Of a DNA stretch of 46,504 bases, positions 23,713 to 42,816 are shown piece by piece. The DNA lies in assembly GCA_036724695.1 (NCBI GenBank), contig DAIMFJ010000002.1, forward strand, positions 1 through 46,504, in the 5' to 3' direction. The notes under the pieces are model-generated. The model saw only the letters and a program-made list of their open reading frames with translations. It was not told the origin of the DNA and ran no database searches. Each line of letters begins with the position of its first letter. Within the stretch, counting starts at the first letter, position 1. The translations under genes and the position numbers were made by a program. Source of the DNA: Planctomycetota bacterium. Its GTDB lineage: Bacteria > Planctomycetota > UBA1135 > UBA2386.

Positions 23713-23727
23713 AGGCACGCACCTTGC
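23713..23727 (+). promoter_or_regulatory. sigma54-type promoter motif (aGGCACgcaccTTGCt) with no annotated gene downstream
   Basis: GGCAC-N5-TTGC with correct -24/-12 spacing. It lies in the 265-bp region between the convergent AKR and proS genes. Confidence 0.4.
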
Positions 23728-23884
23728 TCCCGAGCGCCGCGGACCGTCTCGCGGACCGCTCCGACATGCCACTTCGGCGCGCTTCAGCGCCCCCCCATCG
23801 TGTTGGCGAGCCCAAGAGGGGTCGTCAATAGACCTCGCCATCTGCAATCGCAAGATGTGACCGCAGAGTGACTTCCATCAAACG

Positions 23885-23917
23885 CTGCGCATACGGGACC
23901 GGGTGAGGTATGCGCAG
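23885..23917 (-). terminator. hairpin terminator candidate after proS
   Basis: Perfect 10-bp inverted repeat CTGCGCATAC-N13-GTATGCGCAG, 7 nt downstream of the proS stop. On the minus strand it is followed by CGTTTGATGG (short U run). Confidence 0.5.
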
Positions 23918-23924
23918 AGGCGAG

Positions 23925-25622
23925 CTAGGCGCGCAACGCGGCGAGCACCTTGGCGCGAACGTCGGCCGCGGCGCACTCGCTCTTCTGCAGGCCCTTGCGG
24001 ATCAGGAACTCGACCTGGCCTTCGGCGGCCTTGCGGCCGACGAAGACCTGGAGCGGCATGCCGAGGAGTTCGTGGTCCTTGAACTTGGCACCTGGGCTCA
24101 TCGGTCGGTCGTCGAGGCAGACGTCGACACCGGCGGCCTTGAGTTCGTCGTAGAGCTGCTGGGCCAGCTGTTGCTGTTCCTGCCGCGACGGATCGAGCAT
24201 CGCGACGACGCACTCGAAGGGCGCGATCGACGGCGGCCAGACGATGCCCTTGTCGTCGTGGCTCTGCTCGACCGCCGCCGCGGGCGTGCGCGAGACACCG
24301 ATGCCGTAACAACCCATCACGAACGGGGTCGGCTTGCCGCCCTGGTCCATGAACGTCGCACTCATCGCCTTGCTGTACTTGATGCCCAGCTTGAAGATGT
24401 GGCCGACCTCGATGCCGCGCGCCTGCTGCAGCGGTGCGCCGGAGATCGGACAGCCTTCGCCGGCGCGCGCCGTGCGCAGATCCTTGAACGACGGCATCCG
24501 GCAATCGCGACCGAGGTTGACGTCGAGGCAGTGGAAGCCGGTCTCGTTGCAACCGACCAGCAGGTTGGTGCGGCCCTGCAGCGACTCGTCGGCCAACAGC
24601 GGCACGTCGTCGCGCAGGCCGACCGGCCCGGCGAACCCGACGTCGGCACCGGTCGCCGCCTTGATCTCGTCGTCGGTCGCGAGCCGCACCTTGAGCGCGT
24701 CCAGCGCGTTGGCGAGCTTGACCTCGTTGATCTCCAGATCGCCGCGCATCATCACCGCGACGACCTTCTCCTTGGCCTTCCACGTGACGTGGTAGAGCAC
24801 GGTCTTGGCCATGCGCCCCGCCACCCAACCGGGGAAGAACGCTTCGAGCTGGGCGACGGTCTTGACGTCCGGCGTGGCGACCTTCTGCATCGGCCGCACC
24901 TCGCCGCCGTCCGGGGCCTCGGGCAGTTTGCTGGTCGCCTTCTCCACGTTGGCCGCATAACCGCTCGCCTGACAGAACAGGATCGAGTCCTCGCCGGAAT
25001 CGGCGATCACCATGAACTCCTCGCTGCCGGCACCGCCGATCGCGCCCGAATCGGCCTGTACGACCGTGTAGGCGAGCCCGCAGCGTTCGAAGATCCGGCA
25101 ATACGCATTGCGCATCTTCTGGTAGGCGACGTCGAGCCCTTGCTGGTCGGCGTCGAACGAATACGCATCCATCATCACGAACTCGCGCCCGCGCATCAGC
25201 CCGAAGCGCGGCCGGATCTCGTCGCGGAACTTGTCCTGGATCTGGTAGCAGTTGACCGGCAGCTGCTTGTAGCTGTTGACCTGCGCGTTCACGTAGGCGG
25301 TCATCACCTCTTCGTGGGTCGGGCCCAGGCACATGTCGCTGCCCTTGCGGTCCTTGAGCGTGAACATGATGCCGTCGGTCACCCACAGTTCCTTCGGCTG
25401 GATGATCGGCAGCATCACCTCGTTGGCGCCCTCGCGATCGAGTTCCTCGCGGACGATCTGCGCGAACTTGCGCACGACCCGCCACATCAGCGGCGCATAC
25501 GTGTAGACGCCGGCGGCGGTCTTGACGATGAACCCGCCACGGGCGAGCAGCTTGTGGCTGGGGATCTCCGCGTCGGCAGGGTCCTCGCGAAGGGTCGAGA
25601 TCAGGATCTGGCTGAGGCGCAT
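23925..25622 (-). CDS. proS: proline--tRNA ligase (bacterial type with editing insertion)
   Basis: MRLSQILISTLREDPADAEIPSHKLLARGGFI.., ..LGPTHEEVMT.., ..YQIQDKFRDEIRPRFGLMRGREFVMMDAYSF.. (class II motif 2), an INS editing domain, and a C-terminal anticodon-binding domain. 565 aa. Start inside track ORF 23925..26189. Confidence 0.95.
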   Translation of the reverse strand: MRLSQILISTLREDPADAEIPSHKLLARGGFIVKTAAGVYTYAPLMWRVVRKFAQIVREELDREGANEVMLPIIQPKELWVTDGIMFTLKDRKGSDMCLGPTHEEVMTAYVNAQVNSYKQLPVNCYQIQDKFRDEIRPRFGLMRGREFVMMDAYSFDADQQGLDVAYQKMRNAYCRIFERCGLAYTVVQADSGAIGGAGSEEFMVIADSGEDSILFCQASGYAANVEKATSKLPEAPDGGEVRPMQKVATPDVKTVAQLEAFFPGWVAGRMAKTVLYHVTWKAKEKVVAVMMRGDLEINEVKLANALDALKVRLATDDEIKAATGADVGFAGPVGLRDDVPLLADESLQGRTNLLVGCNETGFHCLDVNLGRDCRMPSFKDLRTARAGEGCPISGAPLQQARGIEVGHIFKLGIKYSKAMSATFMDQGGKPTPFVMGCYGIGVSRTPAAAVEQSHDDKGIVWPPSIAPFECVVAMLDPSRQEQQQLAQQLYDELKAAGVDVCLDDRPMSPGAKFKDHELLGMPLQVFVGRKAAEGQVEFLIRKGLQKSECAAADVRAKVLAALRA

Positions 25623-25762
25623 TGGGGCCGGCAGGTTACCCGCTCGACGGCCCGCACGGAACCGCGCGCCCGCGGCGATGCCATCGGCGCGACGACGCAC
25701 CGCCGCGCCGCCCACGCCGCCGGACCGCCGACCGCGGGGTAGGGTTCTGTCGGTCTCTCCGC

Positions 25763-40900: not shown

Positions 40901-41265
40901 GCCTGATCGTGCCGTTGATCGACCGCCTGCACGGCCTCGGCTTCGAGATCGTCGCCACCGGCGGCACCGCCAAGGCGCTGGCCAACGCCGGCATCCCGGT
41001 GCAGCGGGTGCACAAGATCCACGAAGGCCGCCCGCACGTGCTCGACATGATCGTCAACCGCGAAGTGCGGCTGGTGATCAACACGCCGAGCGGGCGCCGC
41101 GAACGCAGCGACGACCGCTTGATCCGCAGTTCGGCGGTCACCGCGCGCATCCCGTGCATCACGACGCTGGCCGCCGCCTCGGCGACGATCCAGGGTCTCG
41201 AGGCCTGGCTGCGGAAGCCGCTCGAAGTGCACCCGCTGCAGGAATACCATGCGCGTCTGAGCTGA
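37990..41265 (+). CDS. carB: carbamoyl-phosphate synthase large subunit
   Basis: ..[29 protein letters not shown].., two ATP-grasp halves (..[24 protein letters not shown]..) and a C-terminal MGS-like domain. Homology suggests the true start may be the second ATG (MPRRQDL, 37999). Confidence 0.95.
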
Positions 41266-41313
41266 CGCGTCGGCGCGGCCATCCCGGTCGTCCGTGCGCG
41301 CAATCGCACCGCC

Positions 41314-42588
41314 ATGATCGAGACGCCGCACCACGATTCCCGCCTCGCCCACGAAGTCGCCCGCTTCTGCAAGGAGCAGGTCACCGAGCCGCAGCGGCAG
41401 CGCAGCGAGTTCCCCAGCTCACCGCTGTGGGCTGCCGTCCGGAAGACCGGCACGTCCTTGTGGCTCGACACCGGCGACATCGACGCCGCCCGCGAACTGT
41501 GGGTCCGCGAGTTCGACGCGCTGACCACCAACAACACGCTGCTCAACAAGGAGGTCCAGAAGGGCCTCTACGACCAGCTGGTGCCGAGCGCAGCACGGTT
41601 GATCAAGGCCGCCGGCGGCGCGTTGCCGAACGCCCAGCTGGTCCAGGAGATCGCGTTCGTCCTGAACGCCGTGCACGGCCTGCGGCTGGTGCGCAACTTC
41701 GACGCCGACGTCTCGGTCGAACTGCACACCGCGAGTGCCGACGACGCCGAGGCCAGCTACCAGTACGGCAAACGCTTCCACGCGATCTGCCCGGACCGCT
41801 TCATCGTCAAGGTGCCGCTGACACCGGCCGGCCTGCTGGCCGCGCGCCGCCTGTCGGACGACGGCATCCGGCTCAACTTCACGCTCGGCTTCTCGGCGCG
41901 CCAGAACTGGCTGATCGCCGCCGTGGCGCGGCCGACCTGGGTCAACGTGTTCATGGGCCGCATCAACGCCTTCGTCAGCGACAACCAGCTCGGCGACGGC
42001 AAGAACGCCGGCGAGAAGGCGACGCTGGCCAGCCAACGCGGCCTGCGCCGCCTGCGCCAGCAGCAGGGCGTCGACGTGCGGCAGATCGGCGCGTCGATGC
42101 GCAACGGCCAGCAGATCGCCGACCTGCTCGGTCTGGACGTGTTCACGATGCCCACGGCCGCCGCCAAGGGCTTCCTGGACGCGAAGCCGAGCCCGGCCTC
42201 GCTGGCCGATCGCACTGCGAACGACCCGTCGGTGCAGTTCGCCGCCGGCGTCGACGTCGCCGGCAACCACCTCGACTGCTTCTGGCGACTCGACGCCACG
42301 TGCGAAGCGGCGACGGCCGCGGTGGCGCGCCTGAACGCGAAAGCCGCGACCAGCCGCGACGTGCTGCGCGAACTGGCCGCGCACGGCGCCGGCGACCTGT
42401 TCCCGCAATTCACCGCCGACGAAGCCGCCCGCATCGCCAAGGAGGGCAAGATCCCGGCCTCCGCATCCTGGCAGCAGCGCGTGCAGGCCGGGACCGCCAG
42501 CTGGGACGGCCTGCTGACCGCGGCCGCCTTGGCCAGCTTCACCCAGGATCAGGAAGCGCTCGACCGGCGCATCGCTGGATTGCTGTAA
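41314..42588 (+). CDS. transaldolase-family protein (long form, variant TTNNT motif)
   Basis: ..LWLDTGDIDAA...ALTTNNTLL.. (compare TalB ADTGD...TTNPSL), ..VSVELH.. (compare STEVD), Schiff-base Lys context ..RFIVKVPLT.., ..IRLNFTLGFS.., ..VNVFMGRIN.. 424 aa. Confidence 0.75.
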   Translation: MIETPHHDSRLAHEVARFCKEQVTEPQRQRSEFPSSPLWAAVRKTGTSLWLDTGDIDAARELWVREFDALTTNNTLLNKEVQKGLYDQLVPSAARLIKAAGGALPNAQLVQEIAFVLNAVHGLRLVRNFDADVSVELHTASADDAEASYQYGKRFHAICPDRFIVKVPLTPAGLLAARRLSDDGIRLNFTLGFSARQNWLIAAVARPTWVNVFMGRINAFVSDNQLGDGKNAGEKATLASQRGLRRLRQQQGVDVRQIGASMRNGQQIADLLGLDVFTMPTAAAKGFLDAKPSPASLADRTANDPSVQFAAGVDVAGNHLDCFWRLDATCEAATAAVARLNAKAATSRDVLRELAAHGAGDLFPQFTADEAARIAKEGKIPASASWQQRVQAGTASWDGLLTAAALASFTQDQEALDRRIAGLL

Positions 42589-42800
42589 GCCGTTCCCCAC
42601 AAGCCTCTTCTGAGATCCGCTGCGGCCCCTCCGAACCGGTCCGATCATACGCTATGGCGTATTCATCGCCAGAGGGCCGGGAATCTCGCCGCGGACGGAA
42701 CCGTCGCCGCGACTTTGCGTTGTGGGGATTCTGCGGCCGCCAGCCCGGCAGCGGACCTGTCCCATCCAGCCCCGCGCCGGCCATCACCCAGGTGCCGGTG

Positions 42801-42816
42801 TGGCACCCGATTTGCA
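42801..42816 (+). promoter_or_regulatory. sigma54 promoter, perfect consensus (TGGCACccgatTTGCA)
   Basis: TGGCAC-N5-TTGCA, intergenic. The -12 GC lies 19 nt upstream of the ATG at 42835. Confidence 0.7.

Follow-up and report, generated by a model that had tools for sequence, protein, structure and literature searches.

A likely two-promoter sigma-54 unit around a kinase-like activator gene in an uncultured lineage of Planctomycetota

Introduction

In enteric bacteria, the activator NtrC acts at the sigma-54 promoter glnAp2 from two sites at -108 and -140, 32 bp apart, and textbook sigma-54 enhancers lie at -80 to -150 from the start site. NifA, NorR and FhlA, which have a GAF-AAA+-helix-turn-helix (HTH) layout, are one-component activators that need no partner histidine kinase; NorR acts from several phased sites. 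For the phylum Planctomycetota, Studholme and Dixon (2004) reportedly predicted sigma-54 activators and promoters in silico in Pirellula sp. strain 1, also named Rhodopirellula baltica, a study cited in PMC2754498 and PMC12316311. Here we analyse a stretch of 46,504 nt from a Planctomycetota bacterium (contig DAIMFJ010000002.1 of assembly GCA_036724695.1; hereafter the window), and conclude that it very likely holds a self-contained two-promoter sigma-54 unit, in which two predicted promoters, P2 and P3, flank the gene for their activator.

The unit resembles NtrC and glnAp2 in its -24 GG/-12 GC promoters, in two dyad sites about 32 bp (three helical turns) apart, and in an AAA+ activator with a GAFTGA motif and a Fis-type HTH domain, whose gene lies in the regulated neighbourhood. 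It differs in the position of the sites, which are at about -55 and -87 instead of -108 and -140, some 55 nt closer, with no room for a bending protein. NtrC carries a receiver domain where the present activator has a kinase-like/TPR/GAF sensor, and NtrC targets nitrogen assimilation genes, whereas the targets in the window are secreted proteins of unknown function. As in NifA, NorR and FhlA, the GAF domain directly precedes the AAA+ domain on its N-terminal side and the HTH domain is C-terminal; unlike them, the activator has about 780 extra N-terminal residues, Ser/Thr-kinase-like and TPR. Rhodopirellula baltica belongs to the same phylum, and there too sigma-54 promoters were, by report, predicted from sequence; that work concerned cultured Planctomycetia, whereas the module described here is seen only in uncultured metagenome-assembled genomes (MAGs). 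It is normal for sigma-54 promoters to lie beside the gene that encodes their activator, so that this is an ordinary system in a new lineage; it deviates from the textbook only in that the enhancer lies at a short and rigid distance from the promoter.

Promoter motifs and palindromes

Genes in the window, which has about 70% G+C, were called from third-position GC and reading frame and annotated with Pfam; by this gene map, intergenic DNA amounts to 2670 nt (5.7% of the window). A scan of both strands for GGCAC-N5-TTGC gave six matches, against a chance expectation of 0.56 per window from 100 dinucleotide shuffles, none of which reached six. An earlier sequence-only reading of this DNA had listed five of them, at coordinates that are correct for 16-mers including one flanking base, and had estimated about 0.5 chance matches, in agreement with the shuffles; the sixth, at 45297 within a large open reading frame (ORF), it had missed. 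Four of the six, at 23714, 28117, 33446 and 42802, are intergenic and on the + strand, as had been noted (binomial P = 1.5e-4). In simulated sequence of intergenic composition 0.042 such sites are expected, with a Poisson P(>=4) of ~1e-7, and the intergenic enrichment claimed for the window is therefore real. All four sites have GG and GC doublets 10 nt apart within the motif. The last of them, as positions 42801-42816, shows the full consensus TGGCAC-N5-TTGCA that had been ascribed to it, with 11/11 specified bases and an intergenic expectation of 0.00075. The two exact matches in coding regions are treated as chance, their number being within chance expectation: one (7807..7820, - strand) is antisense in a HEAT-repeat gene (7421-8287), in line with the earlier description of a site antisense in a coding sequence, and the other (45297..45310, + strand) lies inside a giant ORF (42835->46504). 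No sites were found in a sigma-70 consensus scan of 23500-43000, this consensus being uninformative for Planctomycetota, and an Rfam scan of the whole window returned no family.

The predicted -24/-12 element of P2 (GGCACaccgtTTGC, 28117..28130, + strand) is an exact match, with 49 nt from 28117 to the ATG that opens a lipoprotein signal peptide. That of P3 (GGCACggcgaTTGC, 33446..33459, + strand) is likewise exact, with 41 nt to the ATG of a signal peptide. Taking the C of GC as -12, transcription would start at ~28142 from P2 and at ~33471 from P3. Visual inspection showed CCGGAATCCGG-like motifs common to the sequences upstream of 28117 and of 33446. A palindromic 17-nt matrix, refined only on sites from loci other than the window, converged on the 17-bp palindrome YGTSCGGAWTCCGSACR. 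When the 46.5 kb were scanned with this matrix, the top four matches were at 33377, 33408, 28079 and 28047 (16-20 bits), and these were the only ones of at least 14 bits, all at P2 and P3. No palindrome was detected by the matrix upstream of the coding-region matches at 7807 and 45297.

Each promoter has a distal and a proximal copy of the palindrome, for which no strand is assigned. At P2, the distal copy (TGTACGGATTCGGTACA, 28047..28063, 16.0 bits, centre ~-87) begins 69 nt upstream of the promoter 16-mer, and the proximal copy (CGTCCGGATCGTGGACA, 28079..28095, 17.3 bits, centre ~-55) begins 37 nt upstream, as in nearly all orthologous promoters. At P3, the distal copy (TGTCCGGATTCCGGGCA, 33377..33393, centre ~-86) is the best match in the window at 20.4 bits and begins 68 nt upstream of the 16-mer, and the proximal copy (TGCCCGGAATCCGGACG, 33408..33424, centre ~-55), second-best at 18.9 bits, begins 37 nt upstream. 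The two copies are 31-32 nt apart at P2 and P3, and 21 nt apart in some relatives. P2 and P3 thus both have dyad-symmetric, helically phased upstream sites, as an enhancer would.

To assess conservation, 23 loci were compared, drawn from the contexts of homologues, one metagenome scan and two loci from a search for activator relatives. Protein identity between loci is about 50%, at which intergenic sequence is expected to be scrambled. The promoter, the palindromes and their spacing nevertheless recur in about 20 loci of uncultured Planctomycetota. In nearly all loci one palindrome copy begins 37 +/-1 nt upstream of the 16-mer, and a second at 68-69 nt, or at 58 nt in one subgroup, three or two helical turns upstream. 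In an alignment of 24 promoters, GG, GC and two palindrome positions are invariant; the spacer between palindrome and promoter is 19-20 nt long and unconserved in sequence, and the distance of the palindrome to the -24 element is fixed within 1 nt. In 16/20 loci the interval from the activator gene to its downstream neighbour contains a good-scoring GG-N10-GC site of the P3 type, where about 2.7 are expected in 20 regions (binomial P ~5e-11). Sites matching P2 precede the lipoprotein gene in L081, L082, L085 and L088, and degenerate versions were seen in L001, L083 and L095, giving four clear and three degenerate sites among nine relatives. The gene order activator, ~193-aa protein, ~555-aa protein holds in almost every locus that extends far enough upstream. 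Judged by sequence conservation, P2 and P3 are conserved predicted promoters.

The palindromes probably bind the activator encoded between P2 and P3, because they co-occur with its gene and because its HTH domain has a recognition helix (ISRTALYEKLKR) that orthologues conserve, in agreement with a conserved binding site.

Activator and target genes

The activator (enhancer-binding protein, EBP) gene, 29567..33364 on the + strand, encodes 1265 aa with kinase-like, TPR, GAF, AAA+ and HTH_8 domains by Pfam. Its product is the only Sigma54_activat match among all scanned genes, so that the sequence-only reading was right in naming it the sole activator of the window. The AAA+ sigma-54 interaction domain (PF00158, E = 5e-68) contains GAFTGA at residue 1032, Walker A GETGTGKE and Walker B FLDEV, all three conserved in 12 orthologues, and the C-terminal Fis-type HTH (PF02954) spans residues 1221-1262. 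The GAF domain (residues 790-925) is a described regulatory type of EBPs, and the added Pkinase and TPR region lies outside the classic types. The kinase-like motifs HLDLKPAN, DFG and APE are present and likewise conserved in 12 orthologues. In all 13 orthologues GGEG, the KVL lysine, HLDLKPxN, DFG and APE are retained in the kinase-like domain, which corresponds to window 29567-30400 (residues 1-280); by these motifs it is probably an active non-RD kinase and not a pseudokinase.

The nearest full-length relatives of the activator are from uncultured Planctomycetota MAGs. The kinase-fused architecture (~residues 10-1264) is found further afield in MAGs of Bradymonadales (L005), Kofleriaceae (L033), Acidobacteria (L016) and Pseudomonadota (L009), with 27-48% identity in the best-matching segment, and 0/4 of these loci have any flanking gene in common with the window. 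A literature search of limited reach found no published work on kinase-fused sigma-54 activators. The activator gene of L082 (6163-9955) is fragmented, with genes called at 6163-9231 and 9761-9955 and tblastn frames that shift; it is either a pseudogene or an assembly error, and the promoter and palindromes of that locus are intact.

The first gene of the putative P2 operon (28179..29561, + strand) encodes a 460-aa lipoprotein with an LLAAC lipobox. Its family is unknown: Pfam gave only a sub-threshold DUF5666 match, a family profile found no match among PDB sequences, and a structure predicted from the single sequence was unusable (predicted local distance difference test, pLDDT, 33). The activator gene begins 5 nt past the lipoprotein stop codon, which suggests that the activator is autoregulated from P2. 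In eight loci a lipoprotein homologue immediately precedes the activator gene, with a gap of 0-20 nt. The leader of the lipoprotein mRNA would open with a hairpin with 12-nt arms (CGGGCCTGGACG/CGTCCAGCCCCG; window 28141-28168), which begins at the predicted P2 start site. On the minus strand, a weak 16-mer at 28013-28028 faces the P2 palindromes from the opposite side and shares them with P2; it was rejected for want of a gene to transcribe.

The putative P3 operon begins with a gene (33500..34084, + strand) for a 194-aa protein of unknown family with a signal peptide; Pfam gave no match, and its family profile matched no PDB sequence. Homologues occupy the same position in L081, L083, L084, L086, L088, L089 and L093. 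The second gene (34138..35811, + strand) encodes a 557-aa secreted protein, predicted to consist of two beta-propellers in tandem: its AlphaFold model has a pLDDT of 88, and the best structural matches are double-propeller proteins. Its 153 homologues bear, in all source names listed, the label 'hypothetical protein', and the named sources are Planctomycetota or unclassified MAGs. No relatives of known function were detected for the lipoprotein and the 194-aa protein with Pfam and PDB profiles, and BLASTP showed no paralogy among the target proteins.

Several observations count against a unit of this kind. P2 is degenerate or was not found in four relatives (L001, L083, L095 and L087), and 4/20 P3 regions have no good site. 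The palindrome matrix, refined on other loci, was seeded with a consensus first seen in the window. The palindrome centres lie at about -55 and -86/-87, compared with a usual enhancer range of -80 to -150, and the P3 pair forms a hairpin that could be a terminator of the activator gene. By Pfam, rpoN is absent from the window, and no RpoN-box was present in the 1.75 Mb of DNA fetched. The intact GAFTGA activator implies an rpoN gene in the source genome, as does the occurrence of rpoN in cultured planctomycetes, where that of Rhodopirellula baltica is RB6491 (PMC2754498).

Proposed mechanism and significance

From the motifs, their geometry and conservation and the domain content of the activator, we infer the following course of binding, initiation, operon transcription and physiology. 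Sigma-54 RNA polymerase would form closed complexes at P2 (28117-28130) and P3 (33446-33459). Dimers of the activator would bind, through the C-terminal HTH domain, to the two 17-bp palindromes (YGTSCGGAWTCCGSACR) of each promoter, with TGTCCGGAATCCGGACA as the predicted target of this domain; the palindrome centres would be about 55 and 86-87 nt upstream of each start, about three helical turns apart. The activator would then oligomerise and, with ATP and the GAFTGA loop, bring about promoter opening. P2 would drive the lipoprotein gene and the activator gene itself, in positive autoregulation, and P3 the genes of the 194-aa secreted protein and the 557-aa secreted tandem beta-propeller. The N-terminal kinase-like, TPR and GAF domains presumably gate this activity.

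When all fetched loci were searched for a promoter combined with the palindrome, further cassettes came to light. These stand before a beta-helix/NosD-like lipoprotein gene (L084 3569-3640, - strand), before GT4 glycosyltransferase genes (L094 6560-6615 and L101 8680-8736), and before glycosyltransferase genes starting MRVLTYSHDSYGLGHLRR (L092 1870-1924 and L097 2850-2907). L084 belongs to the 6.59-Mb contig JBKAGP010000001 of assembly GCA_046290465.1. The regulon is therefore larger in the relatives than in the window, and its output, given the glycosyltransferase and beta-helix lipoprotein genes, looks like cell-surface remodelling. Such an output would agree with two published observations: sigma-54 is in general associated with the cell exterior (PMC3162934), and a 2025 survey of Planctomycetia reports that envelope and secretion functions are enriched (PMC12316311).

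More tentatively, and with considerable doubt, the kinase-like/TPR/GAF activator may be a one-protein link from a Ser/Thr kinase to sigma-54. It would act from a rigid, promoter-adjacent enhancer (-55 and -87, within 1 nt), with no need of DNA looping or of a bending protein, and control a conserved surface programme (lipoprotein and beta-propeller, and in relatives glycosyltransferases and a beta-helix protein) in this uncultured Planctomycetota clade.

The analysis puts forward a complete regulatory unit, with exact promoter positions, for a Planctomycetota clade known only from metagenomes, and yields a 17-bp binding-site consensus of fixed geometry and a likely autoregulatory loop. The target genes all encode unannotated secreted or surface proteins. 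An uncharacterised activator architecture, kinase-like/TPR/GAF, gains a defined predicted DNA target, and this target is open to tests in a heterologous host, with no need for a culture of the organism itself.

Other intergenic matches and alternative explanations

The full-consensus match at 42802 (tGGCACccgatTTGCa, 42802..42815, + strand, exact), here called P4, is likely a real sigma-54 promoter of the giant gene, gained recently in this lineage and served by a different activator encoded outside the window. The reasons are the low chance expectation of the full consensus (0.00075 in intergenic DNA) and its placement, on the right strand and with 20 nt to the ATG of a good signal peptide; the earlier description of the intergenic sites as correctly placed holds here as it does for 28117 and 33446. 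The palindrome of the local activator is absent, with a best score of 0.0 bits within 300 nt upstream against a background median of 4.1 per 283 nt, which favours another activator. On the other side, no -24/-12 site precedes the giant gene in any of six relatives (L081, the closest, and L102-L106), the leader would be only about 8 nt, and no candidate enhancer is present except an AT-rich palindrome at 42648-42663. L109 (GCA_000803545.1, JRYL01006745.1), the nearest giant-gene relative, is 100% identical to the window over 42560-42860. It is therefore uninformative on the conservation of 42802, and this organism is represented by at least two assemblies. The carB-tal-giant block is conserved by itself; in one MAG, it and the activator module are on separate contigs. 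Site 42802 is thus probably outside the unit of the activator, as a separate, lineage-specific sigma-54 promoter whose activator is encoded elsewhere.

The giant gene itself (42835..46504, + strand), of which the window end leaves the 5' part, encodes a secreted protein with a signal peptide and no Pfam match, of unknown family. Its homologues are about 2100 aa long and come from Planctomycetota MAGs, with 'hypothetical protein' for all listed source names. The AT-rich palindrome mentioned above (ATACGCTATGGCGTAT) is about 172 nt upstream of the predicted start site of the 42802 promoter, stands out in DNA of 70% G+C, and is a candidate site for the regulator of the giant gene. In L081 (18370-18400) and L102 (3875-3905), the giant gene is preceded at about 95 nt by a conserved palindrome, GGGAATCYGCCGCATGGGCGCRGAWTCCC, after which comes the conserved sequence GGGGGCACAATCGATGAGCC. 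The window lacks this palindrome and has the full-consensus sigma-54 site instead, and the promoter of the giant gene may have been replaced in the window lineage.

The match at 23714, here P1 (aGGCACgcaccTTGCt, 23714..23727, + strand, exact), lies in the spacer between an aldo/keto reductase gene and the convergent proS, and is probably non-functional, a chance match or a non-productive binding site. Between it and the 3' end of proS there are 197 nt, all non-coding, so that in this case the claim of correct placement failed. No coding signal was found downstream; a small ORF of 21 codons from 23766 was rejected, with a third-position GC of ~52% by hand count compared with ~90% in real genes. 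The best palindrome score within 300 nt upstream is 5.3 bits (background median 4.1), and 0/2 relatives (L107 and L108; ProRS identity 88%) have a site of this type. In these relatives a Trypsin_2 gene and an 88-aa PP-binding-like ORF lie between proS and the aldo/keto reductase gene (L107 6722-8026, L108 6722-7902). The counterpart interval of the window, 23660-23924, is a 265-nt spacer in which tblastn and blastn found no remnants of the two genes, which points to a lineage-specific deletion.

We consider it unlikely that 23714 is instead the sigma-54 promoter of a small non-coding or antisense RNA ending at the hairpin at 23885-23917. The match is exact and intergenic, with P = 0.04 for one chance intergenic site, and the 187 nt downstream fold somewhat better than shuffles. 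The fold z-score of -2.1 is weak, however, and a structured RNA was rejected on that account; there is also neither a palindrome nor an Rfam family, two close relatives have two genes in the interval and nothing that corresponds to the spacer, and the hairpin is better explained as the terminator of proS.

It is quite improbable that all four intergenic sites (23714, 28117, 33446 and 42802) form one regulon of the activator at 29567-33364. All are exact, intergenic and on the + strand, with the activator gene among them, and two chance intergenic matches would have P = 7e-4. Against this, the palindrome of P2, P3 and ~20 orthologous promoters is absent at 23714 (5.3 bits) and at 42802 (0.0), neither of these sites is conserved, the giant gene stays with carB-tal where the activator module is on another contig, and 23714 has no downstream gene. 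The local sigma54 regulon proposed by the sequence-only reading therefore stands around the activator, at P2 and P3, and not for the two outer sites; motif enrichment alone overcounted the regulon by a factor of two.

It is likewise quite improbable that the palindromes are terminator hairpins or a repeated intergenic element and not activator sites: the P3 copies do together form a 16-nt perfect inverted repeat just past the activator stop codon, but each copy is itself a palindrome, the sequence itself is conserved, with a flanking G and C invariant in 24 promoters, the distance to the -24 element is fixed within 1 nt at ~50% protein identity, copies are also found ahead of genes in positions other than behind the activator gene (at P2, at the beta-helix gene of L084 and at the glycosyltransferase genes), and only four matches of at least 14 bits occur in the window, all at P2/P3. 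We retain the two-promoter unit of P2 and P3, with the palindromes as predicted activator sites.

Gene neighbourhood

The genes around the unit are mostly housekeeping genes: ruvC, ispD, ispF, carA, carB, proS, asnB, tal, tsaD and peptidases. The ProRS of the window has 88-91% identity to Planctomycetota MAG proteins. Upstream of P2, window 25763-27976 encodes a 737-aa secreted protein of unknown family, with no Pfam match above threshold and without a sigma-54 site of its own. In L081, an SMC_N/AAA_15/AAA_21 ATPase gene and a 211-aa ORF lie between the 737-aa and the lipoprotein genes (1869-3886); the window lacks this pair, which resembles a defence-type one. In L107 (246-4853) and L108 (310-4843), the 737-aa protein is represented by two tandem paralogues beside proS.

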